A DNA stretch of 64,000 nucleotides, from IMG/VR virus record IMGVR_UViG_3300047382_000771, positions 32,001-96,000 of that record, one strand, 5' to 3'. A model generated the notes under the pieces. The model saw nothing but the letters and a program-made list of their open reading frames with translations, did no database searches and was not told the origin of the DNA. The DNA is from a virus. Taxonomy: Duplodnaviria; Caudoviricetes. Position numbers and translations under genes: made by a program. Shown piece after piece: positions 44,169 to 63,341 of this stretch (within the stretch, counting starts at the first letter, position 1; each line of letters begins with the position of its first letter).

Positions 44169-47100
44169 TTATGAATAACTATTTGGTGTAAAAGATGTAT
44201 TACTAGAAGGGTAGGATCTTGATGGGCCCCAAATCAATCTCGCTGCACCAACTCCACCTAGGCCTCCGTTAGCTCGGGTATCGTCTTCTGCACCACCACC
44301 GCCGCCACCGAAATTTCCTCCGTGTCCGCCAGATGAGCCATCGCTCCCTCCAGAACCACCCTTGCCTATTGTTGAGCCGCTTCCAGATCCTCCAGAACCA
44401 CTACTACCAACACCATAAATGCCGACTCCGCCACCCCCATTAGATTGAGTGCCACCTCTTGCTTGACCTGCTCCGCCTCCTCCGCCGCCACCTGATCCAT
44501 TAAATCCATTTTTGTAATTTCCTGATGAACCTTGGCCTCCATTACCAGAATACCCAGCAGCACCACCTCCACCGCCGCCCCCGTTATTGTATTGAGAGGG
44601 TCCTCCGTATCCTCCTCTGAAGCCATTTGGGCCAGTAATATGAGAACCTCCAAGAGTGGCATTACTACTTCCATACGCTCCACCTTTACCACCGCCTGCT
44701 TCTAAAATGGTTGAATTGTTAAGTTTAATTACAGTATTACCTCCGTCAACCCCAGATGTTTTTGCCCAACCAACTCCTCCGCTACCACCTCTACCGACTA
44801 TGATGGTTATTTCATCACCTGGATTCACTGACTGTGAGGATGTGTAAGAGAGTGCTCCCCCGCCTCCTCCAGAACCAGAGTGTGTACTATTACCGAAAGA
44901 TCCAGCGGCCCCACCACCAGCACCAACCGCTAAAGCTGATATAGAATTAACGTGATTTGGTACTATGAATCTATATGTACCATCGGTTGTAAATTGCTCT
45001 TCACCCTGAGGGGTGATTGGGTTAGTTCCACCACTCATTTGAATGGTTTGTCCTTGGTTTAAAATTACAGAGCCACCTTGGTTTATAATAATGTCGGGAT
45101 CATTAGAGTCGTTCCAGTCATTAACAAACTCGGTTATAGTTTTTATTCCGTCCCCACTAAATGTGAACCCATTAAAAAACGAACTGTTGGTACTACTAGT
45201 TAATGAAACACTGGCCTGACTCTGGTCTGACGCAGTCACATTGCCAGAAAATAAAGAAGGGGAGCCTATAGAGCCTACCATGTACAAGGCTCTTATGTTA
45301 TCATTACCAGTAGAAGTAGTAAACTCAGTGTTCGGGTCAATCGGGTCCGCAAAAGTTCCAGGGCCATCCGTAACCCATTTAGCAAAAAGATATCCATTAT
45401 TAGGTGAAGCTGATAATGTGATTTTAGAATCCATTACCTTAGACAGGTTATTAACTCCATCCCCGTTTTGGGTACCTTGATTACCTGAAACCGTGATATT
45501 GTATCTGATTAATTTAACAGACAAATTAATAGTAGCATTTCCAGCCCCAACCGTAAAAGTTGTGCTAGGAGTGCTTGGACCAATTTGGCCAGCACCAGAA
45601 AGAGACCATGATTCAAATTCATAGCCAAGATTAGGGAGTGAGGATATAGTAACTACATCACCAATATTATAAACCCCACCCCCAGTTGCACTGGAGTTAG
45701 AGCCATTAATTGTAATTGTATAATCGATTGGTGTGAAGACCGCCTCTAAGAAAGCATTTCCATCACCGCCAATAAAAGTGGTTGATGCGGAGTTTACGTC
45801 TCCTATCGAGCCAGGTCCGCTTATGTTCCAGTGACTAAATTCGTAGCCGAGGTTAGGTGTAGCTGAAATGTTTACAACTTCCTGGTAATTAAATGAACTA
45901 GAACCAGTGGTTGAACCCGTGAAAGATTGCAGGCTTAGTTCGTAATTTATTAATGTATAAGTACCTTCTATTGTAGCATCACCTGCACCAACAGTAAAAG
46001 TTGTGCGTTTATTGAAAGAGTCAAATAAGGATCCAGTACCAGTTATGCTCCAATGACTGAACTCGTATCCAGTATTACCTATAGCTTCAATAGAAAAGGT
46101 ATCATTTATATTATATATGCCAGATCCAGTTTCGGTACCATTATCACCTTGTACTGAAATATTGTAATCAATAGCTGAGTAGTTTGCTGTAAGAGTAGTA
46201 TGCCCTTCTCCGACTGTAAAACTAGTCGAAGCTGAATTAGAATTAGCAATGCTTCCAGAACCTGACTTAGTCCAGTTTACAAACTCATAACCAGAGTTTG
46301 GTACAGCTTCAATAGTGAAGTTATCGTTAATGATGTGACTACCCCCAGCGGTTTCAACTCCGTTCTGTCCACGAATAGATATCGTGTAAGGTATTGCTAC
46401 ATAATTAGCTGTTATTGTTGCATCTCCAGCACCAACTATAAAATTAGTATTAGTGATAGAGCTATTTTGTATAACTCCAGATCCAGATAAAGACCAATGA
46501 GAGAATCTGTAGCCAGGGTCAGGGTTAGCTGTTAAAGATACAATATTATTTATATTATAAATGCCCCCTAAGCTTTCTGTTCCATTGTCTCCGTTTACAG
46601 TTATAGTATAATCGATAGCATTATATGTCGCTGATATGTCACAGTCTCCGTTTCCTACTGTGAATTGTGTTGATGCGGAGGAGGTGTCAGCTATAGTTCC
46701 AGCTCCAGATTTAGACCAAGATACAAATTCATAACCTAGGTCTGGAGTTGATAATAAATTAATATTGTCATTAATATTGTATATACCAGGGCTATTAACT
46801 GTTCCATTAGTACTATTAAAGTTAATTAAATAATCTATAGCTTTATAGATTGCAGTAAGTACTGCATCACTAGTATTGACAACATAACTAGTATTATTTA
46901 AACTGGAATTAGTAATTGACCCATCTCCATTTGTGGACCAATTAGAAAATAAATAGCCAAGGTCTGGTGTCGCTGTTATATTAACAATATTGCCTATGTT
47001 ATGAATCCCTGGGCCAGGTGTTTCCGTACCATTGGAACCGTCTGTACTAATGGAGTAATCTATTAAAGTGTAAATAGCTTCAACCGTACAATTACCTGCA

Positions 47101-49547
47101 CCTACTGTGAGTTTTGCATTAGGGGAGGTTGAGGAATCCAGAGAGCCTTGACCTGTTATAGACCAAGAAGTAAACTCATAACCAGGATCTGGTGTTGAAG
47201 TGATATTAATTACATTATTTATATTATAAACTCCAGAACCTGTTTCTACGCCATTTGAACCTTCGACAGTAATTGTGTAATCTATCAACTCGTAAATAGC
47301 TGTGACTGCAGCGTGTCCTGCACCAACAATAAATGTCGTTGATGATACAGCTGTATTGGAAATTGATCCTGGGCCAGATTTAGACCAAGATACAAATTTA
47401 TATCCAGGGTCTGGGTTAGCACTTAATGAAATTGCGTCTCCTATATTGTAGACACCTGAGCCAGACTGACTGCCATTTGGGCCAATGATTGATATATTAT
47501 AATCTATAGCTGTATAATTAGCGCTGATTAATGCATCTCCTGCACCTACTGTAAATTTGGTTTGAGTTGAGGCAGCTGAAAGTATGGTGCCTGGATCAGA
47601 AGATGACCAAGAGGTGAATTCATATCCAAGTTCTGGCTTGGCTGTTATATCTAAAACATTACCTATATTATAGATGCCTCCGCCTGTTTCTACCCCATTA
47701 GATCCATTTGTAGATATTGTGTAGTCAATAGCTTCATAGATAGCCTCTATGGTGCAGTTGCCGTTTCCAATAACAATAGATGTGCTTCTTGAGGTGCGGC
47801 TTGTAAGGCTTCCAGGTCCAGTTAGTACCCAGTTTTTAAATAAATAACCAGGATTGGGTGTAGCCGTAATATTAATTACATCGTTAATATTATAAATCCC
47901 GCCTCCTGTGGAGCTTCCATTAGATCCTGATAGTATTAGGGTGTAATCAATTGCTTGATAGTTTGCAGTAATTAAAGCATCAGATGAAGATACTTGGAAA
48001 GTAGTTGATGGGGAGTTAGGTTGTGTTATTGATCCCGCGTCTGAGGTAGACCAGTTAGAGAATTCATAACCAGGGTCAGGGGTAGCTGTAAGTCCAGGAG
48101 CACTTAAATATTCAAAGGACCCAGATCCAGTCTCGGTTCCATTATCCCCAGATACTGTGATGTTGTATAGTATTTTTGAGTATGAGGGGTATACCTCAGA
48201 GTTGCCAGCACCAACTACAAATGTTGTGGTTTCAGAACTTGGCGAAGATACTGTGCCGTCTCCTTTTACTATCCATTTGTCAAAATTAAAACCAACCAAA
48301 GCATCGGCGGAAATATTTATAGTATCACCTATGTTGGATACCGTTTTAGTAGTATAATCATTTACTGGGGTGTTGTCAGACTCCCGTCTTGTTGAAGTGG
48401 TAATATTATAATCTATAGCTTCATAAGTAGCTGTTAAGTCAACACTGGAGGTACCTATAGTAAAAACAGTGCTTGCGGATCTGTCGTTTTTAATAGATCC
48501 TGCACCAGAATTTATTACCCATTTTTTGAACTTGTAACCCGCATTTGGGGTAGATGAAATATTAACGGTATTTCCTGTTTTATATTGTCCAGAGCCAGTC
48601 TCTATACCATTACCACCTGTAAGATTGAGTAGGATAATACTCTTTTTATATTTAGCTATAATTTCACACGATCCCGCACCGACAGTAAAATTAGTGGTTA
48701 ATGAAGATTTATTTTCCAGATTACCAGGTCCAGACAATCCCCATTGTGTAAATTCATAACCAGGCACAGATGCGGCAGAAATAGAAAATGTATCACTAAT
48801 ATTGTATATGCCACCTTCTGTTTGAGGACCTAGTCCAGATACTTTTACATTATAATCTATAGCTTCGTAATTAGCTACTATATTTGCATTGCCTGCTCCA
48901 ACTTTAAAATTAGTAGATGATGAAGAAGGGTCAGCTATAGTTCCTGGGCCAGTGAAACTCCATTGTTTAAACCTATATCCTGCAAATGGTTTTGCTGATA
49001 TATTAACTATGTTGGTGATATTGTATACTCCTGAGCCTTTTTCAGAACCATTAGTACCAGAAACATCTATGTCGTAGTCAATAGCTGTATAGCTAGCTTC
49101 AACTTTAGAGTGGAATGTGCCTACTGTAAATTGTGTAGAAGGGGAGGTTTTTTGAGCAACTGAACCTGGGCCGATGACTTTCCAGCTTTTAAATAAATAG
49201 CCAGGATTAGGTGTTGAGGATATTGGGATAGAGGTACCTACTGGAAATGCTCCCGCTCCAGTTTCTACACCGTTGTCGCCATCAATTTCTATGATGAATG
49301 TTGATATTTCAGCTAAGTCATCTGGCCTAAATGAGTTATCAAATGTATCTTGTAATAGATTATCTAATTCAGCTGTTTTTAATCTTCTATTAAATTCCCT
49401 ACCAATATGATTAACATAATAATCTTTTGCGAACTCTCCTCCGTTTTTTAAATATTCCTGAATCTCAACTTCAAGAGCATTATGTTTGCTCGAAAGTTTC
49501 CCTGAATTTCTAAGGGCATGTATTCGGTGGCGAAGATCGTATGACAT
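44169..49547 (-). CDS. 1792-aa protein with 18 tandem InlB B-repeat-like (Flg_new-type) domains and a C-terminal glycine-rich fibre-tip domain
   Basis: Counted 18 units of about 74 aa (NG.ETG.G.Y...I.A.P..GY.F..W...G.G.I....ST.F.VG.G...A.Y.AIDY). C-terminal FTTDGTY.F.VP..V..I....VGAGGG...GARLIWG. Confidence 0.82.
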   Translation of the reverse strand: MSYDLRHRIHALRNSGKLSSKHNALEVEIQEYLKNGGEFAKDYYVNHIGREFNRRLKTAELDNLLQDTFDNSFRPDDLAEISTFIIEIDGDNGVETGAGAFPVGTSIPISSTPNPGYLFKSWKVIGPGSVAQKTSPSTQFTVGTFHSKVEASYTAIDYDIDVSGTNGSEKGSGVYNITNIVNISAKPFAGYRFKQWSFTGPGTIADPSSSSTNFKVGAGNANIVANYEAIDYNVKVSGLGPQTEGGIYNISDTFSISAASVPGYEFTQWGLSGPGNLENKSSLTTNFTVGAGSCEIIAKYKKSIILLNLTGGNGIETGSGQYKTGNTVNISSTPNAGYKFKKWVINSGAGSIKNDRSASTVFTIGTSSVDLTATYEAIDYNITTSTRRESDNTPVNDYTTKTVSNIGDTINISADALVGFNFDKWIVKGDGTVSSPSSETTTFVVGAGNSEVYPSYSKILYNITVSGDNGTETGSGSFEYLSAPGLTATPDPGYEFSNWSTSDAGSITQPNSPSTTFQVSSSDALITANYQAIDYTLILSGSNGSSTGGGIYNINDVINITATPNPGYLFKNWVLTGPGSLTSRTSRSTSIVIGNGNCTIEAIYEAIDYTISTNGSNGVETGGGIYNIGNVLDITAKPELGYEFTSWSSSDPGTILSAASTQTKFTVGAGDALISANYTAIDYNISIIGPNGSQSGSGVYNIGDAISLSANPDPGYKFVSWSKSGPGSISNTAVSSTTFIVGAGHAAVTAIYELIDYTITVEGSNGVETGSGVYNINNVINITSTPDPGYEFTSWSITGQGSLDSSTSPNAKLTVGAGNCTVEAIYTLIDYSISTDGSNGTETPGPGIHNIGNIVNITATPDLGYLFSNWSTNGDGSITNSSLNNTSYVVNTSDAVLTAIYKAIDYLINFNSTNGTVNSPGIYNINDNINLLSTPDLGYEFVSWSKSGAGTIADTSSASTQFTVGNGDCDISATYNAIDYTITVNGDNGTESLGGIYNINNIVSLTANPDPGYRFSHWSLSGSGVIQNSSITNTNFIVGAGDATITANYVAIPYTISIRGQNGVETAGGSHIINDNFTIEAVPNSGYEFVNWTKSGSGSIANSNSASTSFTVGEGHTTLTANYSAIDYNISVQGDNGTETGSGIYNINDTFSIEAIGNTGYEFSHWSITGTGSLFDSFNKRTTFTVGAGDATIEGTYTLINYELSLQSFTGSTTGSSSFNYQEVVNISATPNLGYEFSHWNISGPGSIGDVNSASTTFIGGDGNAFLEAVFTPIDYTITINGSNSSATGGGVYNIGDVVTISSLPNLGYEFESWSLSGAGQIGPSTPSTTFTVGAGNATINLSVKLIRYNITVSGNQGTQNGDGVNNLSKVMDSKITLSASPNNGYLFAKWVTDGPGTFADPIDPNTEFTTSTGNDNIRALYMVGSIGSPSLFSGNVTASDQSQASVSLTSSTNSSFFNGFTFSGDGIKTITEFVNDWNDSNDPDIIINQGGSVILNQGQTIQMSGGTNPITPQGEEQFTTDGTYRFIVPNHVNSISALAVGAGGGAAGSFGNSTHSGSGGGGGALSYTSSQSVNPGDEITIIVGRGGSGGVGWAKTSGVDGGNTVIKLNNSTILEAGGGKGGAYGSSNATLGGSHITGPNGFRGGYGGPSQYNNGGGGGGGAAGYSGNGGQGSSGNYKNGFNGSGGGGGGGAGQARGGTQSNGGGGVGIYGVGSSGSGGSGSGSTIGKGGSGGSDGSSGGHGGNFGGGGGGAEDDTRANGGLGGVGAARLIWGPSRSYPSSNTSFTPNSYS

Positions 49548-50364: not shown

Positions 50365-50799
50365 TCATCTCCTTTTGTTTGGGACTGCATAAAAACCCAC
50401 AACCATAAAACATAAATCCATAAATGCCGACAACATTAGGCCTCCAGTTAATGTCACAACTTCCCAATCTTTACCACCAAAAACCCAACTAAATAAACCC
50501 CATTTAGCTGAATCACCTTTGGGTACTATTAAGTCATAAGTGATGTTGGGGTTATGGGCATAATAAATCATCATATAGCACATTGTAAAAGTTATACTCA
50601 TAAACAAAACCCTGCGTGTGACTTTAACAAATGGGTCATCAGCCCTCTTGTCTTGGTTGGATATTAATGCATTAAGCATTTCATTATCTCTTGCTGCAAG
50701 TAACATTTGATCTTGCCTCTTTTGTTCGAGCCAGGCATTAACTAGGTTACATCCAAGCTTGATGCCAGCACCTAAAATAGTATTTAATATGGGACCCAT
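50365..50799 (-). CDS. Holin-like membrane protein (resembles the 3TM GTA-type holins)
   Basis: Amphipathic N-terminus, charged linker, TM RRVLFMSITFTMCYMMIYY, TM ending VVGFYAV, basic tail KRR. Confidence 0.45.
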   Translation of the reverse strand: MGPILNTILGAGIKLGCNLVNAWLEQKRQDQMLLAARDNEMLNALISNQDKRADDPFVKVTRRVLFMSITFTMCYMMIYYAHNPNITYDLIVPKGDSAKWGLFSWVFGGKDWEVVTLTGGLMLSAFMDLCFMVVGFYAVPNKRR

Positions 50800-50808
50800 A
50801 AAGGTATA

Positions 50809-51339
50809 TTACACTTTTATGGAAACAAATAGTTTAATTATTGAAGTTTTTTTAATCGAGTCAGAGTAAAACCATACCCAGGGATAACTGCAATGTATTG
50901 AATTTACTTCTTTTTCTGCATCACTTATAGATTGTTCTAAATGCCTTATACTTTTGTAATCTATATCTGATGTGTCTATTTTTAATTTTTCAGCTATAGA
51001 GATCAAATCATAGGATTTGTTTTCTTTTTTAGCTTGAACAGCTTCTTCTAGTAGGCCTCTAGTGGAGTCATCTTTAGTTATATCTGTATGGGTTTGTGTA
51101 GCTATTTTCCTAAAAATACTTTTAAGATTTTTTGGGAGAGGCTCTTTTTTTTGACCCTCTTCTTTTTTGAGGTTTTGAAAGGGGTCTTTTAAATTATTCT
51201 TAGAGCAATACTCGTGAACAGCAGAGCAGAATAAAGGGACGGATTGTTCGTAAATTTCTTTACAAAGCGAAAGCTCTTCTTTTATCTCTTTGCTTTTAAA
51301 CTTTAACCTTCTGATTAAAGTTTTTTTATACCCATCCAC
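50809..51339 (-). CDS. Helical protein containing a J-domain-like segment (HPD replaced by HTD)
   Basis: LKSIFRKIATQTHTD resembles the J-domain helix II-loop (IKKAYRKLAxxxHPD). Confidence 0.5.
   Translation of the reverse strand: MDGYKKTLIRRLKFKSKEIKEELSLCKEIYEQSVPLFCSAVHEYCSKNNLKDPFQNLKKEEGQKKEPLPKNLKSIFRKIATQTHTDITKDDSTRGLLEEAVQAKKENKSYDLISIAEKLKIDTSDIDYKSIRHLEQSISDAEKEVNSIHCSYPWVWFYSDSIKKTSIIKLFVSIKV
50810..50814 (-). promoter_or_regulatory. GTGTA motif, 10 nt upstream of ATG 50799
   Basis: aaGTGTAatatacctttATG. Confidence 0.7.
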
Positions 51340-51340
51340 A

Positions 51341-52357
51341 TTAAAAGTCGTCTTCTAATGATCCTGCCTGTTGGTATTCTCTAACTCTGCGCTCAAAGAA
51401 ATTACCCATAGCTTGCACATCTACAACCTCACCCAACCAGGGGAATGGGTTTTTATCACTAGGGAAACGAAAATCTAAACCGATTCCTTCTAATCTCCTA
51501 TTGCCTATATAATGCATGTAGTCAACGAACATTTCCGCATTCAAGCCCAAGATACCTGTCGGTAAAACATCGTGAGCATAGGCTATTTCAAGCTCTACAG
51601 CTTTTTTGATATGGTTGACAAATTCATCTTGGATTTCTTTGGTCCAAATTTCTGGGTTTTGCTCAATCAATGTATTGATTAAATATGTCCCAAAAGCTAT
51701 GTGGGAACTTTCATCTCTCAAAGTGTATTTAATTTGGTCAGAGACCCCTTGGAGTTTATTCTGGCGACCAAGAGCTAGAAGCATTGCGAAGCCGCTGAAG
51801 AAAAATGTACCCTCACAAACAATCCAGTAGGTCAAGAAATTTCTCAACAACTCTTGTTTGCCCTCTATGGTGGAAGTACTAAAATCATTTCTGGTTAAAT
51901 CATTAGTGATGCTCATTAAGAAGTCGTCTTTAGCCTTGATACTAGGTATAGTTTCGTAGGCTGTGTAAACTTCATCTATATCTAAGTCTAGACTATCGCA
52001 AATATAGACTACGGTTAAATTGTGCAAACTCTCTTCAAAGGCCTGCCTTAAGATGTACTGCCTACATTCCGCATCTGTGATATATTTAAACGCAGATAAT
52101 AATAAATTATTGCCCACTAAAGATTCAGACCCAGCAAAGAAACCTAAGCATCTTTTGACTAAAAGTTTTTCATCTTCTGTGATTTCGTCACCTTTCCATT
52201 GTTTGATATCATTTTGCATTGATATCTCAGTAGGCATCCAGTTGTTTGCGCAACTTTTTAAAAACAAGTCCCAGGCATATTTGTGTTTATGCGGAAGGAT
52301 CCTGTTGACGCCAGCAATATTTTCAGTTAAAAGTTGTCCTGTCTTATTAGTATTCAT
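51341..52357 (-). CDS. nrdB: Ribonucleotide reductase beta subunit with class Ic (R2c)-type signatures
   Basis: Metal ligands E78, E109, H112, E (CEG) and E/H (RDESSH); Val116 at the radical-Tyr position; C-terminal FFERRVREYQ. Confidence 0.93.
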   Translation of the reverse strand: MNTNKTGQLLTENIAGVNRILPHKHKYAWDLFLKSCANNWMPTEISMQNDIKQWKGDEITEDEKLLVKRCLGFFAGSESLVGNNLLLSAFKYITDAECRQYILRQAFEESLHNLTVVYICDSLDLDIDEVYTAYETIPSIKAKDDFLMSITNDLTRNDFSTSTIEGKQELLRNFLTYWIVCEGTFFFSGFAMLLALGRQNKLQGVSDQIKYTLRDESSHIAFGTYLINTLIEQNPEIWTKEIQDEFVNHIKKAVELEIAYAHDVLPTGILGLNAEMFVDYMHYIGNRRLEGIGLDFRFPSDKNPFPWLGEVVDVQAMGNFFERRVREYQQAGSLEDDF

Positions 52358-52366
52358 AGTGTGATC

Positions 52367-52395
52367 ATTATATAACGAAACTAAACTAATGTCAA
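52367..52395 (-). promoter_or_regulatory. Consensus sigma70 promoter of nrdB
   Basis: TTGACA (52395-52390), 17 nt, TATAAT (52372-52367), 9 nt, ATG 52357. Confidence 0.85.
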
Positions 52396-52458: not shown

Positions 52459-52848
52459 TTACTTTTTTCGTTTAAATATCCCTTTAGCATAATTGTAAAA
52501 ATATAATATTAACCCTGGGAATGTAAAAATCAAGCAACAACCTATAATAAATAAAAAAGTAAACGCAGAATTAGATATACTATCGGGAGTGATGGAGGAT
52601 AATGGATAGTCCATTTCTTTAGTGATATTTAATTCATCCGATTTAATTATAGGTTTCATCGTTTTATTCGGTTGTTGTAATGTTTTTAGTTTACTGACAA
52701 CCTTTGTAGAACAAGAGCTTAATCCGAGAGTAAATAAGACATAAAGGCTAAGTAGCCATATATAGTGAGATAGTAAGCGAGGAAACTTGATAAACATAAT
52801 ATTGCTGATAGCAAAAGAGCTATTTTGTCTTTCATAATTTATATTCAT
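52459..52848 (-). CDS. Putative lipoprotein with a C-terminal TM helix (u-spanin-like topology)
   Basis: Hydrophobic signal ending in lipobox-like LSSC; about 48-aa soluble segment; TM AFTFLFIIGCCLIFTFPGLILYFY; tail KRKK. Alternative start at 52797. Confidence 0.45.
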   Translation of the reverse strand: MNINYERQNSSFAISNIMFIKFPRLLSHYIWLLSLYVLFTLGLSSCSTKVVSKLKTLQQPNKTMKPIIKSDELNITKEMDYPLSSITPDSISNSAFTFLFIIGCCLIFTFPGLILYFYNYAKGIFKRKK

Positions 52849-52849
52849 T

Positions 52850-53155
52850 TTATATAGAGCGCAATGAATTAATTATAAAAGCTAAGTTCCCAGCATGTAT
52901 GTTTGGTATTTTAAGGTTTCCTTTTGTAGTTGAAATGGTAAATCCGTATTCTTTTTCGTCTTCTGTTAGTAAATATGATATAAAATCATGCGCCCCATGT
53001 CTTTTTAACCAATCCCAATATATACTGCGAGTTCCATTTTTACAGCGAAGTAAAACATCTTCGCAGCGATATACTTTCGCATACAGTGTAACATCCCTAA
53101 AACATGAAATTTCGCTAGGAGGCTCAGATAGAACCGAATCTATAATTAATTTCAT
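52850..53155 (-). CDS. Hypothetical protein (likely start MKLII at 53155)
   Basis: The GTGTA motif sits 9 nt before ATG 53155, inside the longer predicted ORF. Confidence 0.55.
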   Translation of the reverse strand: MKLIIDSVLSEPPSEISCFRDVTLYAKVYRCEDVLLRCKNGTRSIYWDWLKRHGAHDFISYLLTEDEKEYGFTISTTKGNLKIPNIHAGNLAFIINSLRSI

Positions 53156-53164
53156 GCATAATAA

Positions 53165-53169
53165 TACAC
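53165..53169 (-). promoter_or_regulatory. GTGTA motif, 9 nt upstream of ATG 53155
   Basis: gtGTGTAttattatgcATG. Confidence 0.65.
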
Positions 53170-53179
53170 ACAAAAAAAA

Positions 53180-53566
53180 CTAGCAGTTCGATTTTATAAT
53201 TTTTACTATCTTGCTATCTATTAAATATGGGAACCTATCTAGCTCTTCAACTTTAAACCAACCGTACTCTGTATGCTCTTCATTCAGGTTAACATTAGGT
53301 ATTTCATCGAAGTTGTATTTGAATATGTCAAAAGTATTTGAACCCTTATATATAGTTTTGCAGAAAACAAGGTCTATTGGAGATATTTTTATGCCCGTTT
53401 CTTCGTCCAGTTCTCTGCTGGCACAAACCCTAGGAGACTCTGCAGGAGGCTCTCTTGAGCCTGCAAATATACTCCAGTAACCACTGTAGGCGATCTCTGG
53501 CCCTTCTATGCGTCTAGCCAAAAGGACTAAGGAATTATTATATATAATACAACCAGCAGCACTCAC
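53180..53566 (-). CDS. NUDIX hydrolase (likely start GTG 53566)
   Basis: Nudix box G(SREPPA)ESPRVCASRELDEETGI, with one extra residue after the Gly; LNEEHTEYGWF. Confidence 0.85.
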   Translation of the reverse strand: MSAAGCIIYNNSLVLLARRIEGPEIAYSGYWSIFAGSREPPAESPRVCASRELDEETGIKISPIDLVFCKTIYKGSNTFDIFKYNFDEIPNVNLNEEHTEYGWFKVEELDRFPYLIDSKIVKIIKSNC

Positions 53567-53576
53567 TGCCAATATG

Positions 53577-53581
53577 TACAC
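53577..53581 (-). promoter_or_regulatory. GTGTA motif, 10 nt upstream of GTG 53566
   Basis: agGTGTAcatattggcaGTG. Confidence 0.55.
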
Positions 53582-53585
53582 CTAA

Positions 53586-56084
53586 TTACTGGCAACTTTC
53601 ACAGATTTCTCCATTTTTCATAGCCTCGATACTACAAGCAGAGGCTTCGGTTGTTTCCTTGGATTCCGTTTCAGACGAAGAGGGGGTGGATTTCTCAATT
53701 TTACTAGCAGCCCTATTCCTTAAATAGTAGGTTGTTTTTAAACCATCTTCCCATGACTTCATATATATATCATTAAGATACTTGAGAGATGTCCCTTTAT
53801 TATACAGATTAAAACTAATCGATTGATCGAACCACTTTTGCCTAGAAGCATTACATTCAATCAACTTGATCATATCCCTGTCGAAAGCTGTTTTATATTT
53901 TTCCTTAATACGATCAGGTATAGATCCATTGAGTAGAGATAAATCTCCATCGCAACTTTTAACTAAAGCTGCCATTTCGCTATTCCATAAACCTATGTCC
54001 TTCATGTCTTTAACGAAATGAGGGTTTGTGATGTAAAAATTCCCGCTCTTATTTTCGTAAACGAATAAAACAGAAAAGTTTGGCTCAATGCTTTGTTCTA
54101 CACCATTAATGTAACCTATTGTTGCGGTAGGCGCAATAGCCATGACATTGGAGTTTCTCATGCCAAATTCAGCGATGTGATCCCTGACAGTTTTCCAGTC
54201 ATCAAGAGATTCACCCTTGCCTTTTGGTGGGGATTTTCTCTCTTGGACTTGGTCGTTGTATTGGTATGTCTTGTTCCTGTATGCCATTAGATTATTGTAA
54301 GAATCTATAGGGAGTATGTTTTGACTCCACAGAGAACCTTCGTAAGTTTCATAAGAACCTCTTTCTTTTGCTAATTTAGAGCTAGCAAGAATAGCTTGTT
54401 TGCTAAAAAACTCAAAGAAAGAATCGTTCCATTTAACGGCTTCGTCGCTATCAATATTAATATTCATTACATGCAATACATCATGAATACCCATGACACC
54501 CAAGCCTATAGGCCTGTTCTTGAGATTGGAGTTACTAGACTCCTTTGTTGGGTAGAAATTAATATCAATAACATTATCTAACATTCTTACCGCTGTATGT
54601 ATTGATTCTTTTAATTTTTCGTAATCAAATACATAACTACTTTTACCATGAGTCATCTTTTCCTTGACATGATTGAGTAGATTAATAGAACCTAAATTAC
54701 AAACAGCAGTTTCTCCTATCTCTGTTTTTTCTCCTTTACTGTACTTTGAGGCTTTTGTGTGGAGAGTTATTTCTGTACAAAGATTACTACTATGAACTAC
54801 TCCTTCGTGCTGATTAGTATAACGTATGTTACAGGGATCCTTAAATGTACTCCATGGGTGAGAAGTTTCAAATAAAACCTTTAACATTTTTTTCCATAAC
54901 TCTTTTGCAGGGCTTACTCTGTAATTTTTAATTAAACCTTCCTCTGCTTTAGCGCATAGTTCATTGTATTTTTTATCAAATTCAGCCCCAAAGCAATCGT
55001 GTAAATCAGCTTCTGTTGGGTCAAAAAAGTACCAATCATCTTCGTTCTGTACTCTCCTCATGAACTCATCTGGAATCCAAGACGCAGTATTCATATCGTG
55101 ACAACGTAATCTGTCATCTCCAGTATTTCTTCTTAAGTTGAGGAAATCTTCGTAATCCAAATGCCAGGGCTCTAGATAAGCACAGCCTGCTCCAGGCCTT
55201 TTACCTCCCTGGTTAACTGCAACCAGAAGATCATTGTATATTTTTAACCAAGGTATTAAACCTCCAGATATACCATTCGTTCCTTTAATGTGAGAACCAG
55301 CAGAGCGAAACGGAGTGACATCAAAACCTAAACCTCCTGCAAATTTTGACTTGCGAGCTTCTTGCCAAGCCCCATCAAAAATTCCATCAATACTGTCGTC
55401 AAAGGTATTTAAATAACAAGAGCTAAGTTGAGAATGCGTGGTACCACTATTGAATAAAGTGGGTGTTGAGGACGTGTAAAGTTGTTGGCTTATCAGATTG
55501 TAAAACTCTATAGCTTTTTCGTTCTTATCTTTCTCGTTTAAGGCTAAACCCATGGCGACCCTCATGTAGAAAGACTGTGGAGCTTCCATCACTTTATTAT
55601 CAAGTCTTATAAAGTACCTGTCATACAAAATTTGTATGCCGAGATATTTTAAGTTCCTGTCTCTTCTAATAGAAATTGCTTCTGACAATTTAGAGAGATC
55701 GAAGTCGAGCAACTTACTATCTAACCTTTCTTCTTTTACTAATTTTTTAGTATTCTGAATAAAACTTTTCCTGTACTGGAGCTTGAACGCATCCGAATCC
55801 GCGCTTTCTTTAAATACTTCTTTATACAAAGTATTGAGTAATAATCCCGCTGCAGCGTAGGAATAGTTTGGTTCTTTCTCTATCTTTTCCCTTGCCGAAA
55901 AAATCAGAGCTTGGTCTATCTCTCTCGTAGTGATTTTATCAAATAGCTGAAGCTGTGCGTCTAGCACTATCTCGCTAGCTGATACATCTTCAATGCCTTC
56001 ACACGCTCTTTGGGCGCTGGCATTAATTTTCTCTACAGTAAAGTCTTCTAATCTTCCGTTTCTCTTCTTAACTTTTATATCCAT
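53586..56084 (-). CDS. nrdA: Ribonucleotide reductase alpha subunit (class I) with an N-terminal ATP cone
   Basis: VKKRNG ATP cone; TPTLFNSG; SSCYL; QGGKRPGA; SNLCTEI; APTA; KTTYYLR; C-terminal CESCQ. Confidence 0.96.
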   Translation of the reverse strand: MDIKVKKRNGRLEDFTVEKINASAQRACEGIEDVSASEIVLDAQLQLFDKITTREIDQALIFSAREKIEKEPNYSYAAAGLLLNTLYKEVFKESADSDAFKLQYRKSFIQNTKKLVKEERLDSKLLDFDLSKLSEAISIRRDRNLKYLGIQILYDRYFIRLDNKVMEAPQSFYMRVAMGLALNEKDKNEKAIEFYNLISQQLYTSSTPTLFNSGTTHSQLSSCYLNTFDDSIDGIFDGAWQEARKSKFAGGLGFDVTPFRSAGSHIKGTNGISGGLIPWLKIYNDLLVAVNQGGKRPGAGCAYLEPWHLDYEDFLNLRRNTGDDRLRCHDMNTASWIPDEFMRRVQNEDDWYFFDPTEADLHDCFGAEFDKKYNELCAKAEEGLIKNYRVSPAKELWKKMLKVLFETSHPWSTFKDPCNIRYTNQHEGVVHSSNLCTEITLHTKASKYSKGEKTEIGETAVCNLGSINLLNHVKEKMTHGKSSYVFDYEKLKESIHTAVRMLDNVIDINFYPTKESSNSNLKNRPIGLGVMGIHDVLHVMNINIDSDEAVKWNDSFFEFFSKQAILASSKLAKERGSYETYEGSLWSQNILPIDSYNNLMAYRNKTYQYNDQVQERKSPPKGKGESLDDWKTVRDHIAEFGMRNSNVMAIAPTATIGYINGVEQSIEPNFSVLFVYENKSGNFYITNPHFVKDMKDIGLWNSEMAALVKSCDGDLSLLNGSIPDRIKEKYKTAFDRDMIKLIECNASRQKWFDQSISFNLYNKGTSLKYLNDIYMKSWEDGLKTTYYLRNRAASKIEKSTPSSSETESKETTEASACSIEAMKNGEICESCQ

Positions 56085-56186: not shown

Positions 56187-57218
56187 TCAAGAGTTGTTAA
56201 CAAAATCATTTTGGTACATCTTTTCTACTAATTTATTAAAGTCTGTTTTTCTTGTCCAACCTAACTCTGTTTCAGCCATAGAGGGGTCTCCGCAAAGCTT
56301 GTGTACTTCTGCTGGTCTATAAAAATTGGGGTCAACTTCGAAAAATAATTTACCGTCGAGGGTGAAGTATTTTTCATTAACACCTTCTCCTCTTGAGATA
56401 AATGGTATATCTGCGTAAGCGAGACTAAGGTTTAAGAATTCTCTGACAGAGTGCATCTCCCCGCTGGCTAGAATATAATTTTTTGGCGAATCTTGGTTTA
56501 ACATTAACCATACACCCTCCATAAAATCTTCTGCGTCACTCCAATCTCTTTTAGCTTCTATGTTGCCTAATTTAAGTAGGGGCAGTTCGTCTGCATTTGA
56601 GTTTATTGCTTTTTTAAGTTTAGCTATTGAGTGGGAGATCTTCCTGGTGACAAAATCTAAACCCCTCCTAGATCCCTCATGGTTGAAGAGCCAGCCTTGA
56701 ACGGCATATAAACCGTAAGATTCTTTATAAACTCTAACTATGTGCCTCGCTGCACATTTAGCTGCCCCGTAAGGAGATTGGGGGTTTAATGGATGAGACT
56801 CGTTTTGAGGTGTGTACTCTACATCTCCAAACTCTTCAGATGATCCAGCATTATAAAAATTACAATGTGGGGAAAACCTTCTTATGGACTCCAAGATATG
56901 CAGGACTGAGTTTGAGTCTGTCTCCCATGTTTGTATGGGGTAATCCCAGCTCCCAGCAACGAATGACTGTGCTGCAAAGTTAATAAAGTAATCTGGCTGT
57001 ATGTCAATAATAACATCCCTGATACTATGAGCATCGTTTAGGTCCATGTTTAGTAATTGAAATCTGGGCTCTTTCTCTAGATGGAGGATATTACCATGGT
57101 TTTTGACACTCAACCTTCTCGCTGTTCCGTATATCATGTGCTTAGTATTGGCTAGAAGGTAATCAACCATGTGGCTTCCGTCTTGACCTGTAACTCCTGT
57201 GACTATAATTTTTTTCAT
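56187..57218 (-). CDS. gmd: GDP-mannose 4,6-dehydratase
   Basis: TGVTGQDGS; NFAAQSFV; SSEEFG; SPYGAAK; LFNHE; FVTRKI; RDWSDAEDF. True start MKKII at 57218 (ATGA overlap). Confidence 0.95.
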   Translation of the reverse strand: MKKIIVTGVTGQDGSHMVDYLLANTKHMIYGTARRLSVKNHGNILHLEKEPRFQLLNMDLNDAHSIRDVIIDIQPDYFINFAAQSFVAGSWDYPIQTWETDSNSVLHILESIRRFSPHCNFYNAGSSEEFGDVEYTPQNESHPLNPQSPYGAAKCAARHIVRVYKESYGLYAVQGWLFNHEGSRRGLDFVTRKISHSIAKLKKAINSNADELPLLKLGNIEAKRDWSDAEDFMEGVWLMLNQDSPKNYILASGEMHSVREFLNLSLAYADIPFISRGEGVNEKYFTLDGKLFFEVDPNFYRPAEVHKLCGDPSMAETELGWTRKTDFNKLVEKMYQNDFVNNS

Positions 57219-58003
57219 AACATTTGTATCCATTCTTCGGGGATTATATCTCGATAACCAGGACCTTCTGGGCCAAACCATTTAGATGGTGCGATAATTT
57301 TCTTTTGTTTATTTTGGTTTAACCATGCAGCCCACCAGCTAAAACTACTATTTGCGATAATATTGTTTTCACAGCAACTCATGATTTTGAGGTCCTCTAG
57401 ATTGGAGTTACCTTCCATGAATATCATGTTCGGATATTTTAGTGAATTCTTGCACCATTGTATATCATCTGAGAATACGAATATATTACCACTTGGGTTA
57501 ATTTCTTCAAGGGCTTTATTATAATAATCAGCACTTAAATTTAAGTGGTATTTAGGAGCATTTAAATAATCCGTGCGTCTTATATGTATGGAGCAAGATC
57601 CAAGGAAGTCGAAGTTGGTAAACTTAGGGTTTTCTCCAAAATCTAATAAATTAATAATACCCTCTCTATGATGTTTGAAATATTTCTCCGATTGCCAGAA
57701 GCCGTCAAGCAATAGATTGCCATCAAGGGTGCTCAGATCTAGGTGATTGTAGAAATTTTCATCGCTAATTTTGTAAACTTTTTTGCTAAAAAAGTCATCC
57801 ATGATTTGGCCTTCGAATCTATCTATTTTTATTTTCTCAAAGTTTTGAAGGTCAAACGTCCTTGGAGTACAACCCTTGCAACCACCTCTAAAAAAAGAAT
57901 CATCTAGGTATAGGTCTAGTCCGTAATCTAAACTTAATGAATAACCGTAGGCCCATTGAAAGATTTGATTAGCTAGTCCACCTTGTATTTTGGATACTAT
58001 CAT
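57215..58003 (-). CDS. GT11 alpha-1,2-fucosyltransferase-like
   Basis: GGLANQIFQ; GFWQSEKYF; IHIRRTDY; FSDDI.WC; IIANSSFSWWAAWL. Start MIVSK at 58003 (ATGA overlap). Confidence 0.9.
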   Translation of the reverse strand: MIVSKIQGGLANQIFQWAYGYSLSLDYGLDLYLDDSFFRGGCKGCTPRTFDLQNFEKIKIDRFEGQIMDDFFSKKVYKISDENFYNHLDLSTLDGNLLLDGFWQSEKYFKHHREGIINLLDFGENPKFTNFDFLGSCSIHIRRTDYLNAPKYHLNLSADYYNKALEEINPSGNIFVFSDDIQWCKNSLKYPNMIFMEGNSNLEDLKIMSCCENNIIANSSFSWWAAWLNQNKQKKIIAPSKWFGPEGPGYRDIIPEEWIQML

Positions 58004-58602
58004 ATTTCCACATACCAATTATGGTGACTTAAGACATTAACACCCAGACCCTTAGAGTTGAAGAAACGGTCTACACATTGTGAAACATGAGGGAAGTTAG
58101 GGTGATTGTAATCGTGCCCTGAAAGTATGCCTCCTGACCTTATTTTCGGAAACCAATTTTCTATATCTTGCTTGACAAATTTTTCAAAATGATTCCCGTC
58201 TATGTATACGAAATCCAAAGACGCATCTTCGAATAGTTCGTAGCATTCATTGGATAATTTCCTAATAAGCTCGAATCTATCTCCGTAGAAAGACATTCTA
58301 CCCTTGACCATGAGGTGTAGATCATCTTGCTTCTCTTGTTCTAAATTCCTCGAATCCCCTTTGTATTCGGAATAATTTAAATAAGGATCTATGCCGTAAA
58401 GTTTTGTGATATTAGTTTTATCTAAAATACTAATAGAATGACCACCATAAGCTACACCAACCTCTACCCCGATCTCATAATTATTGTCATTAATTATATT
58501 GGGTATATCGTTATGCCACTCTTTCCATTCCGAAAGATTTTCAGAAGGATATTTTGCAGTATATTTAACTTCGATTTCTTTTTGTTGTTTTTTACTTATC
58601 AT
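58000..58602 (-). CDS. Class I SAM-dependent methyltransferase (Methyltransf_24-like)
   Basis: EVGVAYGGHS; GIDPY; LDFVYIDGNH; GGILSGHDY. Confidence 0.85.
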   Translation of the reverse strand: MISKKQQKEIEVKYTAKYPSENLSEWKEWHNDIPNIINDNNYEIGVEVGVAYGGHSISILDKTNITKLYGIDPYLNYSEYKGDSRNLEQEKQDDLHLMVKGRMSFYGDRFELIRKLSNECYELFEDASLDFVYIDGNHFEKFVKQDIENWFPKIRSGGILSGHDYNHPNFPHVSQCVDRFFNSKGLGVNVLSHHNWYVEI

Positions 58603-58608
58603 GAGAGG

Positions 58609-59340
58609 TTAAAACATAGACCTTAATTGGGCGGATATTTTCTGAGACTCAAAAGAGTTCTGGGTGTACCAACTGTCTTTAGAGGTTATGTCGTGATTAT
58701 ACTTTAGGCCTGGAACTATATTTAGCTTGAAGTTTTTTTCATTCCTAAAACATAAACATAACACATATAGCACATCAACACCGAGTGGGTTTATTGGGTT
58801 TTTACAAGATTCAATACAAGAGGTGTAAGTGTGTTTGTTGACTAGAAAATTGCCTGTATTAATTAAACACTGGTCAATTGAATCTTTGGAATAAATTAGA
58901 CCCCTGAAATCATCAATATCTAAAGTCCTGCCTGAGTAACGGGAATAATCGAGAGAGGGCGAATTACATTTAGCTAAGCTTGGTAGATAAAAAGTTTTAC
59001 TATCCAATTCACCTGGTAATGAATCTAAATAATCAGTACCGATAATATTGTCAGAGTCGAGTAGAACCACCCAATCATTTGAGGCAAGATCTATAGCTTT
59101 ATATTTATTTAGGAAGGCTCCTAGGTTTTCTGTATTCCTGTGTATTTTTAGCTTTTTAGATCCTATACATTGCACTTGGTCAGATAGGTCATTGAAAATA
59201 CTTGGCTTGGAGTGATCATCTAAAATAATAATTTCATCAACCCTGTCATCGTTTACAACGTTGTGGAAAGATCTAATTGTTTCACTAGACCTATTGTAGG
59301 ATGTGATAGCTAGGGTAATTTTATTTAACATATAATGCAT
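58609..59340 (-). CDS. GT2-family glycosyltransferase
   Basis: AITSYNR; EIIILDDHS; NLG; DWVVLLDSD. Confidence 0.82.
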   Translation of the reverse strand: MHYMLNKITLAITSYNRSSETIRSFHNVVNDDRVDEIIILDDHSKPSIFNDLSDQVQCIGSKKLKIHRNTENLGAFLNKYKAIDLASNDWVVLLDSDNIIGTDYLDSLPGELDSKTFYLPSLAKCNSPSLDYSRYSGRTLDIDDFRGLIYSKDSIDQCLINTGNFLVNKHTYTSCIESCKNPINPLGVDVLYVLCLCFRNEKNFKLNIVPGLKYNHDITSKDSWYTQNSFESQKISAQLRSMF

Positions 59341-59941
59341 CCCCCCATTCGTACTCTGTCATTTTAGTTTCCTTTCTGGAGAAACCAAACTGGCTTAGGT
59401 AGTAGTCAATTTCATCTATCAGTGCACAGTTTTTATATAAATGTGCGGTGTTGACTTCTGTATAAATAAGGTCTATTGAATTTATTAAATTACCCGCACC
59501 CTTGAGAGCTAAGAGTTCCGCCCCTTGGATATCTATATTTAAAAAGTTATAAGAACTTATGTCAATTGAGTTTTCTTTAATTAAAGAATCGAGACGCTTT
59601 GTCTTCACTTTTATCGTCTCAGTAACATGTATGTGTGGGTGATGTATAGTATGTTTGCCTAAATCAAGTATTGAGGAAGACTCCCCGTTGTTTGTTATAT
59701 GGAAATCTAACTCTTGGTTATCAGTATCTGTAATCGCATAATTAAAGACACACTCAGGGCTTGGTGTATTGTTTGTTTTGCAAATAGATTTGTATTTGGA
59801 AGGGTTAGCCTCAATCCATATGGTGTTTTCTAAACCATGAAGAAGGTAGTCATTCCTTTCCTCCATAAGGTGAGCACCTATATGTATAATACCTTTTGGA
59901 GTACCATACTTAGATACTATATCTTTGAATTTAATTAACAT
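59321..59941 (-). CDS. FkbM-family methyltransferase
   Basis: HIGAH; IEANP; LNIDIQGAELLALKG; IYTEVN; WGDALY. Confidence 0.88.
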   Translation of the reverse strand: MLIKFKDIVSKYGTPKGIIHIGAHLMEERNDYLLHGLENTIWIEANPSKYKSICKTNNTPSPECVFNYAITDTDNQELDFHITNNGESSSILDLGKHTIHHPHIHVTETIKVKTKRLDSLIKENSIDISSYNFLNIDIQGAELLALKGAGNLINSIDLIYTEVNTAHLYKNCALIDEIDYYLSQFGFSRKETKMTEYEWGDALYVK

Positions 59942-60591
59942 TATAAGATTTTACTTAGGTCGTGCTTCTTAGTATTGAAGTTACTTTCTGAATGAACTCT
60001 ATGAAAGACGAGGCTGATTGGTATATTATGGAAAAGGTAGCCTTTTTTCAATAGCTTTAACCAAAAGTCAAAATCCTCTATTCCATCTAAAGACTCATCC
60101 CAGCCCCCAATTTCAAGTGCGTGTTGTTTTTTGAACACCGCACTAGAATTTGCTGTCTGGTTATCTCCAGAAAGGGATTTGTTTTTTATTTTACTATGCT
60201 CCATAGATAAGTCTGGTTGACCGCATGGTTTATTGTTTTCATCTATGTAAGTTATGAAGGAGCCAATCACATCGAATTTATCAATGTACTTTACCTGCTC
60301 TTTTAGTTTATCTTGATGCCATAAATCGTCGTCATCTTGGATAGCACAAAAATCATAATTAGACTCTTTAATTAATTTATTAAGAGTTTTGGCTTTCCCC
60401 TTGTCGTTAGCATAATCAAAAACCCTAATCCTAGTATCACTAAATGAATTAACTAAATCTTTTGAGTTATCAGTCGTTCCGTTGAACCCTACTAATAATT
60501 CCCAGTCCGTGAAATTTTGATTTAATATAGATTCGATACTTGATTTTATATATTTTTCTCCATTATATGTCGCTAGTAGAATAGAAATCAT
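59941..60591 (-). CDS. GT2-family glycosyltransferase
   Basis: SILLATYNGEKYI..SI.SIL.Q; IQDDDD; EDFDFW. Confidence 0.88.
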   Translation of the reverse strand: MISILLATYNGEKYIKSSIESILNQNFTDWELLVGFNGTTDNSKDLVNSFSDTRIRVFDYANDKGKAKTLNKLIKESNYDFCAIQDDDDLWHQDKLKEQVKYIDKFDVIGSFITYIDENNKPCGQPDLSMEHSKIKNKSLSGDNQTANSSAVFKKQHALEIGGWDESLDGIEDFDFWLKLLKKGYLFHNIPISLVFHRVHSESNFNTKKHDLSKIL

Positions 60592-60593
60592 TA

Positions 60594-61286
60594 CTAAGTC
60601 CTTAGTTCTTTGTGGTTTTTGTCGAGGGCTATTAATCTTGGATGAAACGGAGGTTTAAGACTTTCTCCATAACAGTAACCTGGGTCTAGGATTTTGGTTG
60701 GAGGGTTATCTATCATGTATCTATTAAGGTGACTTTCGTCGTGCCAAATAGCTATGTATTTTTTAGTTAAATCTTTATTAATGTTGCTTGATATTCGATT
60801 GGCCATTCTTAGGTAGGCAGATGAGCTGCCGCCATTAAAACCCCCAGCAAAATACTCCATTGGTTCTGAATCAGATACAAATGCCGAAGAGTCTTTATTA
60901 GTCTCAGGTGTGCCGCGTGTACCGTAGTAACCAGGATGTTGTGTGGCTACTAAATGGCTTAATATTTCCTCACCGACATGATCTCTAAAAATCATATCAG
61001 CATCGCAATAAAATAAATAATCGAATTTAGATAGTTGTTCTTTATTTTTATCAAAAATGTGATACCTACCTAAAGTCATCCAGGGCCAAGGCTCATGCTT
61101 CGTTAAGATAAAGTTCACAACTCTATCAGTATTTTTTGTATCGCATATAGTATCAGTAAAAATACAATACTCTACATCTATATTGTTTTGTTTTAAAAAA
61201 TATTTGTCCGCACTATGTATTAGGGGTTGTATAAATTTTTGGTATTTATTTGTAGCAATAATTAATAAGCCAACCTTAACACCCAT
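60594..61286 (-). CDS. GT6 (ABO blood-group-like alpha-1,3-Gal/GalNAc transferase)
   Basis: IATNKY; IFTD; WPWMTLGR; YLFYCDAD; HPGYY; YFAGGFNGG; WHDESHLNRY. Confidence 0.9.
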   Translation of the reverse strand: MGVKVGLLIIATNKYQKFIQPLIHSADKYFLKQNNIDVEYCIFTDTICDTKNTDRVVNFILTKHEPWPWMTLGRYHIFDKNKEQLSKFDYLFYCDADMIFRDHVGEEILSHLVATQHPGYYGTRGTPETNKDSSAFVSDSEPMEYFAGGFNGGSSSAYLRMANRISSNINKDLTKKYIAIWHDESHLNRYMIDNPPTKILDPGYCYGESLKPPFHPRLIALDKNHKELRT

Positions 61287-63312: not shown

Positions 63313-63341
63313 TTGACATTTTGCTAAATTATTGTTATAAT
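63313..63341 (+). promoter_or_regulatory. Perfect sigma70 promoter with extended -10, upstream of the sigma-factor gene
   Basis: TTGACA (63313-63318), 17 nt ending TGt, TATAAT (63336-63341). Confidence 0.9.

Follow-up and report, generated by a model that had tools for sequence, protein, structure and literature searches.

The nrdB gene and its diagnostic residues

The stretch of DNA analysed here (64,000 nucleotides, hereafter the window) comprises bases 32001-96000 of the IMG/VR virus record IMGVR_UViG_3300047382_000771, a phage genome of 200,094 bp (Duplodnaviria; Caudoviricetes) that CheckV rates as 100% complete. At 51341..52357 on the minus strand the window carries nrdB, which encodes the 338-residue beta subunit of a class I ribonucleotide reductase (RNR) of the R2c type, with Glu as the first metal ligand and Val at the site of the radical Tyr. 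NrdB matches the ferritin-like R2 family PF00268 along positions 4-281 of the 281 in the profile (E 2.3e-76, 257 bits against a cut-off of 33.6). A preliminary description of the locus, made from the sequence alone, had called the gene phage-encoded. The remainder of the genome agrees, as its PHROGs include a large terminase, virion and tail-fibre proteins, a DnaB-type helicase, an exonuclease and a UvsX/RecA recombinase.

The motifs quoted in that description, and with them both changes diagnostic of R2c, are present; all codons given below are on the minus strand. The GSESLV motif (residues 76-81) includes the first metal ligand, Glu78 (codon GAA, 52124..52126), which in the alignment with Protein Data Bank (PDB) sequences corresponds to Glu89 of Chlamydia trachomatis and Asp84 of Escherichia coli. 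The FEESLHNLTVVY motif (residues 107-118) includes Glu109, His112, Val116 and Tyr118. Val116 (codon GTA, 52010..52012) occupies the radical-Tyr site and is equivalent to Phe127 of C. trachomatis (1SYY) and Tyr122 of E. coli, and in keeping with the preliminary description the alignment places no Tyr at the canonical position. Glu109-x-x-His112 (52022..52033) is the first ExxH metal-binding motif and aligns with Glu120 and His123 of C. trachomatis, while the other metal ligands, Glu182, Glu216 and His219 (51701..51814), align with Glu193, Glu227 and His230. These five ligands are invariant among 36 diverse NrdB proteins.

Both radical-transfer residues are likewise intact. Trp40 (52238..52240) is equivalent to Trp51 of C. 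trachomatis and Trp48 of E. coli, and Tyr328, equivalent to Tyr338 and Tyr356, respectively, lies in a C-terminal tail with the acidic end EDDF (51344..51376) that is presumably the alpha-binding peptide.

Closest relatives of solved structure

By both sequence and predicted fold, the closest relatives of NrdB with solved structures are the two characterised Mn/Fe R2c proteins. The top phmmer match in the PDB is the C. trachomatis R2c (1SYY, 2ANI and 4D8F; E 1.6e-115, 389 bits, 51-52% identity), and the HMMER alignment of NrdB residues 8-334 with 1SYY contains one single-residue gap, near residue 300. The second match is the Saccharopolyspora erythraea R2c 6Y2N (E 4.9e-106, 46% identity). The third-ranked protein, 7AIL, follows at E 7e-38, 75 orders of magnitude weaker, and the R2lox protein 7QBK reaches only E 9.2e-11.

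An AlphaFold2 model of NrdB, built from the alignment of 36 diverse NrdB proteins, has a mean predicted local distance difference test score (pLDDT) of 87.6. Only the C-terminal tail is disordered (pLDDT <50), as is expected for a disordered binding tail. Each of the best 14 Foldseek matches of the model in the PDB is to the R2c of either C. trachomatis or S. erythraea, with template modelling (TM) scores of 0.85-0.93, root-mean-square deviations (rmsd) of 1.4-2.3 Å and 46-52% identity; the TM scores are 0.87-0.92 to C. trachomatis 4D8G, 4M1I and 1SYY and 0.85 and 0.93 to S. erythraea R2c.

The C. trachomatis R2c (1SYY, 2ANI, 4D8F, 4D8G, 4M1H, 4M1I) shares with NrdB the Glu first ligand, a redox-inert residue at the Tyr site, the rest of the ligands and the equivalents of Trp51 and Tyr338. 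It differs in having Phe127 where the phage protein has Val and its relatives Ile, and it keeps Thr, Ile, Asp and Met where the phage protein has Asn113, Thr212, Asn286 and Leu308. The C. trachomatis protein is also cellular, whereas NrdB is viral, has a partner NrdA with one ATP-cone and is assigned its cofactor by homology. The S. erythraea R2c has the R2c ligand pattern in common with NrdB but is a cellular enzyme, from an actinobacterium, and is less close to NrdB than the Chlamydia protein is.

Conservation among close homologs

The 120 best database homologs of NrdB are 81-100% identical to it and derive for the most part from marine metagenomes (Tara, JGI and ENA), where their contigs reach 206 kb. 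Glu78, His112 and Glu182 are retained in all 120, and Glu109, Glu216 and His219 in 119 each, the exception being one gapped row apiece. Trp40 is invariant and Tyr328 is retained in at least 90% of the sequences, as they are across the 36 diverse NrdB proteins, and Tyr118 is found in 119 of the 120. Site 116 is occupied by Val in 75 homologs and by Ile in the other 45, and never by Tyr, Phe or Leu. In a tree of these homologs made without that column, Val and Ile have been exchanged at least 17 times, and the site thus toggles freely, but only among beta-branched aliphatic residues. Because the ligands and Val or Ile are kept across the 120 homologs, the Glu78/Val116 signature is not the product of chance or sequencing error.

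A clade of Glu+Val/Ile/Ala proteins

Sequences for a broader tree came from an exhaustive HMMER search of 1.8 billion representatives (263 matches at E ≤1e-30), from loci of GTDB species representatives and from a search seeded with a Phe-type relative. They were labelled by their residues at sites 78 and 116, and a 73-row tree was computed by IQ-TREE with LG+C20 PMSF. All 23 rows that combine Glu with Val, Ile or Ala form one clade, with 99% ultrafast bootstrap support and 95% in the Shimodaira-Hasegawa-like approximate likelihood ratio test (SH-aLRT), and they stand together in 98% of the bootstrap trees. A distinct and well-supported Glu+Phe clade includes Myxococcales, Magasanikbacteria, Pacearchaeota, Nanoarchaeota and Babela/Babeliaceae, with contigs of up to 1.8 Mb. 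The main Glu+non-Tyr radiation excludes the Asp+Tyr proteins of Acinetobacter and of Pseudomonas putida jumbo phages, which are joined only by a few long-branch rows. NrdB belongs to the Val/Ile/Ala clade, apart from the Asp+Tyr proteins, and this clade joins the Phe/Leu-type rows only via weak backbone branches (37-69% bootstrap) in a tree that holds no characterised R2c.

Ten sites tell the Val/Ile/Ala clade and the sampled Phe clade apart, and residues 113, 212, 286, 308 and 336 are kept in the former and different in the latter. Nine of the ten, all but site 336, can be read for C. trachomatis, which has mostly states that also occur in Asp+Tyr proteins and is without the Val/Ile/Ala-clade residues at five sites (Asp95, Asn113, Thr212, Asn286 and Leu308). 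The bit scores to 1SYY are 389 for NrdB, 359 for the Phe-type representative P0129, and 333, 269 and 255 for P0121, P0147 and P0126. The pairwise scores and the discriminating sites suggest that the C. trachomatis R2c is mostly ancestral in state and belongs to neither the Val/Ile/Ala clade nor the sampled Phe clade.

The lineage appears to be virus-borne. All inspected contexts of Val/Ile/Ala members are phage-like, with G+C contents of 32-55%. P0121 lies with an intein-bearing NrdA, RNA ligase, DHFR and ThyA, P0173 with an intein-bearing NrdA and runs of small open reading frames (ORFs), and P0128 adjoins a UvsX homolog. The clade's contigs from metagenome-assembled genomes (MAGs) share nrdA, and two of them (L005 and L006) have additional genes in common with the phage. 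An R2c signature in a viral record is not without precedent, since P0129 itself is on a phage-like 176-kb contig and the Aquificae Joseph's Coat Spring virus (L103, BK013346.1; metagenome-assembled, from a hot spring) encodes an R2 with the full Glu+Phe signature.

Some relatives are much longer than NrdB. Many relatives in phage contexts (P0122, P0123, P0128, P0129, P0132, P0173, L097, L101 and others) reach about 650 amino acids where they are beta subunits or more than 1000 where they are alpha subunits, and the long beta subunits match NrdB in two separate stretches. For L097 (1-2983) and L101 (658-3933) the alpha subunit is annotated with intein domains, and these features suggest that the long beta subunits may carry an insertion similar in kind to the alpha inteins.

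The NrdA partner and the genomic setting

The gene for the alpha subunit, nrdA, is at 53586..56084 on the same strand, with nrdB 1.2 kb downstream of it. Its product of 832 amino acids has one ATP-cone, the all-alpha domain and the barrel (Pfam ATP-cone, Ribonuc_red_lgN and Ribonuc_red_lgC), is complete in its catalytic residues and contains Cys223, Asn434/Cys436/Glu438, Cys462, the Tyr786-Tyr787 pair and a C-terminal CESC. The best PDB match of NrdA is Pseudomonas aeruginosa NrdA 5IM3 (E 2.1e-237), which we take to be a member of NrdAz. The order nrdA-nrdB holds in 55 of 80 related IMG/VR loci, while contig ends cut some of the remainder, and the genes between the two vary. The identities of the alpha and beta subunits drop in parallel across the relatives, indicating that the nrdA-nrdB pair is inherited as a unit. 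The whole 200-kb genome holds exactly one PF00268 and one PF02867 match, leaving NrdB as the sole possible partner of NrdA. No class III RNR, NrdI, glutaredoxin or thioredoxin was found in the complete genome, and in the case of the last two this means that the reductant would have to come from the host.

Between nrdA and nrdB lie, all on the minus strand, a Nudix hydrolase gene (53180..53581; Pfam NUDIX, E 2e-14), present in 23 of the 80 related viral loci, and two small ORFs of 107 and 129 amino acids (52459..53173) that are without a Pfam match and occur in 15 and one of these loci, respectively. Two more small ORFs, of 176 and 144 amino acids (50365-51339, minus strand), also without a Pfam match, flank nrdB and are present in only some related phages. 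Given the patchy distribution of the flanking ORFs, nrdB is placed in a variable cassette region.

The minus strand carries, at 52367..52395, a putative promoter with a perfect sigma-70 consensus (TTGACA, 17 nt, TATAAT; 12/12), separated by 9 nt from the nrdB ATG that follows it. The 200-kb genome contains a single further site with a complete match, at 63313-63341 of the window on the plus strand, and in related phages sigma-70-like sites recur upstream of nrdB. The 9-nt gap leaves no space for a Shine-Dalgarno sequence. This arrangement suggests that nrdB may be transcribed separately by the host polymerase, as a nearly leaderless message.

Directly upstream of nrdA is a cluster for glycan synthesis (56187-61286, minus strand) that encodes a GDP-mannose 4,6-dehydratase, a family 11 (fucosyl-type) glycosyltransferase, two methyltransferases and further glycosyltransferases (GT), two of GT2 and one of GT6. 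On the other side of nrdB, also on the minus strand (44169-49547), is the gene for a 1792-amino-acid protein with 18 divergent InlB B-repeat domains (PF18998, E 6.5e-188) and a weaker match, below the cut-off, to the C-terminal glycine-rich domain PF21722; it is probably a fibre or adhesin. No tRNA gene was found in the 64-kb window.

Isolated phages, environment and host

With no more than 25% identity between its large terminase and that of any isolated-phage record, and no cultured relative found, the phage belongs to an uncultured lineage. The eleven closest NrdB matches from isolated phages are 43-46% identical, and both of those that were aligned are Asp+Tyr proteins. The P. putida jumbo phages (vB_PpuM-Peetri and relatives), which are the nearest phages in isolation, are likewise phages of about 200 kb with a class I beta subunit adjoining NrdA, at 43-44% identity for beta and 47-48% for alpha. 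They differ in having an Asp first ligand and a radical Tyr, the ordinary class Ia-type signature, and in the trees they fall outside the Glu+non-Tyr group. The top match in the phage database, 'Acinetobacter phage MD-2021a' (L002, CAKLQH020000007.1), was rejected as a phage, since its contig resembles a bacterial chromosome (rstA, LysR, PhzF and an ordinary Asp+Tyr NrdAB).

The stretch of phage DNA is present in seawater, marine and viral-fraction metagenomes of several studies, and no RNA dataset is among those listed as containing it. A close NrdB relative is carried by 327 IMG/VR contigs, clustering at 90% identity leaves more than 120 groups with 81% or higher identity to the phage NrdB, and an ESM Atlas look-up returned viral RNR clusters.

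Related phage contigs (L004-L011, one of 210 kb) are binned in GTDB MAGs assigned to Cellvibrionales, Pseudomonadales, Woesebacteria, Deinococcota and Alphaproteobacteria. As these labels are inconsistent and the contigs phage-sized or short, the bins were rejected as evidence for a host, and the presence of the contigs in these MAGs is probably due to mis-binning. The preliminary description had seen a hint of a host near the Planctomycetes-Verrucomicrobia-Chlamydiae (PVC) superphylum or in another R2c-bearing lineage. That hint finds no support in the phage-like contexts of the clade, its G+C range or the 51-52% identity to the Chlamydia enzyme, a level at which the sequences give no sign of recent exchange with Chlamydiae. 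In the one MAG that holds both a related phage contig and a second NrdB, moreover, the second NrdB is an Asp+Tyr protein.

Relation to known marine phage reductases

NrdB belongs to a kind of protein that is already known, common in the ocean, biochemically uncharacterised and flagged in a 2026 bioRxiv preprint (PMC12918982). That study describes a 'subclass Ic-like' clade from 269 GOV2.0 viral populations, of which the alpha subunit is nearest to NrdAz in RNRdb and the beta subunit retains the metal ligands as well as W48 and Y356, with Ile or Val replacing the Tyr. Its authors saw the Ile or Val as not matching their Ic references, which have Phe or Leu. In comparison, a passage of Harrison 2019 (PMC6370689), citing Lundin 2009, defines NrdBzc by Phe, Leu or Val at this site. 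The phage clade and the Ic-like clade both come from contigs of marine viruses and share an Ile or Val in place of the Tyr (here 45 and 75 homologs), the W48 and Y356 equivalents and the metal ligands. On this likeness, which is drawn from the published description rather than from direct sequence comparison, the two are presumably the same clade. For the alpha subunits, the nearness of the Ic-like clade to NrdAz can be set beside the best solved match of the phage NrdA, 5IM3, which is a pairwise match and not a position in an RNRdb alpha tree.

The preprint rests on alpha subunits and ecology, and 200-kb phage genomes, second-sphere residues and a promoter are not part of its account. New here are the monophyly of the Val/Ile/Ala proteins and their phage-like contexts, the repeated toggling between Val and Ile at site 116, and the clade-specific residues near the ligands and in the alpha-binding tail. 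Also new are the standing of nrdA and nrdB as the sole RNR pair of a complete 200-kb genome and the dedicated consensus promoter. The Cyano SP (class O-like) RNR of cyanophages (PMC6370689) is another class I-like enzyme of marine phages with a beta subunit that lacks the radical Tyr. By its description, however, the ligand pattern of the Cyano SP beta subunit is unique and its branch is separate from NrdBzc, whereas the phage NrdB has the full R2c ligand set.

A probable class Ic-type radical generator

Given its residues, fold, conservation and partner gene, we consider it probable that NrdB is a functional beta subunit, that it generates the radical for the aerobic class I RNR encoded by the phage and that it is of the R2c (class Ic) type, most likely with a Mn(IV)/Fe(III) cofactor. 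A two-metal site bound by Glu78, Glu109, His112, Glu182, Glu216 and His219 would be oxidised by O2. Because Val116 cannot be oxidised, no tyrosyl radical would form beside the metals and the oxidising equivalent would stay on the metal cluster. By homology with C. trachomatis, the cluster would most likely be Mn(IV)/Fe(III) with Mn in site 1, as in the chlamydial class Ic enzyme, which H2O2 also activates (PMC8463856). The oxidising equivalent would then pass to Trp40, to Tyr328 in the C-terminal tail and on to the Tyr786-Tyr787 pair and Cys436 of NrdA, which would reduce nucleoside diphosphates to deoxynucleoside diphosphates for replication of the 200-kb genome. Expression of nrdB would probably be from its own host-type sigma-70 promoter, and host thioredoxin or glutaredoxin would serve as reductant. 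The tolerance to radical scavengers that the preliminary description had expected of such an enzyme does not follow, as hydroxyurea inactivates class Ic RNR (PMC8463856).

Several points weigh against this reading. Val/Ile-type R2c proteins are without a characterised member, sequence does not reveal metal identity, and even the C. trachomatis R2c scaffold mis-metallates (PMC8463856). In the 73-row tree the Val/Ile/Ala clade is distinct from the clade of Phe-type proteins that cellular genomes encode, and the R2c sequences of C. trachomatis and S. erythraea are not among its rows, nor are they among the 150 representatives, the GTDB scan, the Phe-seeded search or the control genomes. Clade-specific changes lie beside the ligands, at Asn113 (after His112) and Thr212 (four residues before Glu216), and in the tail, where Asp336 is specific to the clade and other clades have a near-terminal Trp. 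Finally, no single-metal pattern was found in the distribution of the Ic-like group, and its cofactor was left open (PMC12918982).

A rival proposal is that the Val/Ile clade does the same job with a different oxidant, such as a high-valent cluster of two like metals (Mn2, known from class Id, or Fe2) or other chemistry, and is a class I subclass of its own. Such a proposal would fit the separate clade with its 99/95 support, the derived second-sphere residues Asn113 and Thr212 beside the ligands, the strictly kept aliphatic beta-branched residue (Phe or Leu in none of the 120 homologs) and the naming of the group as 'Ic-like', with cofactor unassigned, in PMC12918982. However, the first-shell ligands are identical to those of R2c, the identity to the C. 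trachomatis protein is 51-52% in an almost gap-free alignment with an rmsd of 1.4-2.3 Å, Val is among the R2c radical-site residues given in the passage of Harrison 2019 that cites Lundin 2009, and the phage genome encodes no NrdI or other activase. On balance we regard a different oxidant as unlikely. The strict beta-branched residue, Asn113 and Thr212 beside the ligands and the altered C-terminal tail could also be taken to mean that the Val/Ile/Ala proteins of viruses form an additional subclass of class I, found mainly in large phages, with cofactor or activation chemistry unlike the Mn(IV)/Fe(III) of Chlamydia, which we judge to be quite unlikely.

It is very improbable that the tyrosyl radical has merely been relocated to another residue. 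Tyr118, two residues past site 116 and kept in nearly all close homologs, would be a candidate, but the C. trachomatis R2c has the same Tyr (Tyr129) at the aligned position and is not known to form a stable tyrosyl radical there. A Tyr is found at this position in the aligned Asp+Tyr proteins as well, and is therefore a general framework residue. The wider family does hold many metagenomic relatives with degenerate ligand sets, and NrdB might on that account be thought a non-catalytic or degenerate R2, either a structural partner like yeast Rnr4 or an R2lox-type oxidase. Yet the six ligands, Trp40, Tyr328 and the C-terminal tail are all conserved, and NrdB is the sole beta subunit of a complete genome that retains an intact alpha subunit. 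The match to R2lox (E ~9e-11) compares with 1.6e-115 for R2c, and both a Tyr-bearing C-terminal tail and an adjacent NrdA are present; a degenerate or R2lox-type protein is thus extremely improbable.

If NrdB is an R2c-type subunit, as its homology to the C. trachomatis enzyme indicates, large marine phages would make their own deoxynucleoside triphosphates by means of an RNR in which a Mn/Fe cluster stores the oxidant. An RNR of this kind would need one iron fewer per subunit and would have no tyrosyl radical exposed to scavengers of the nitric oxide type. This may plausibly be an advantage in iron-poor seawater, and the Ic-like group is anti-correlated with predicted iron (PMC12918982). As the lineage is abundant and without a characterised member, establishing the cofactor of one of its proteins would speak for the whole clade.

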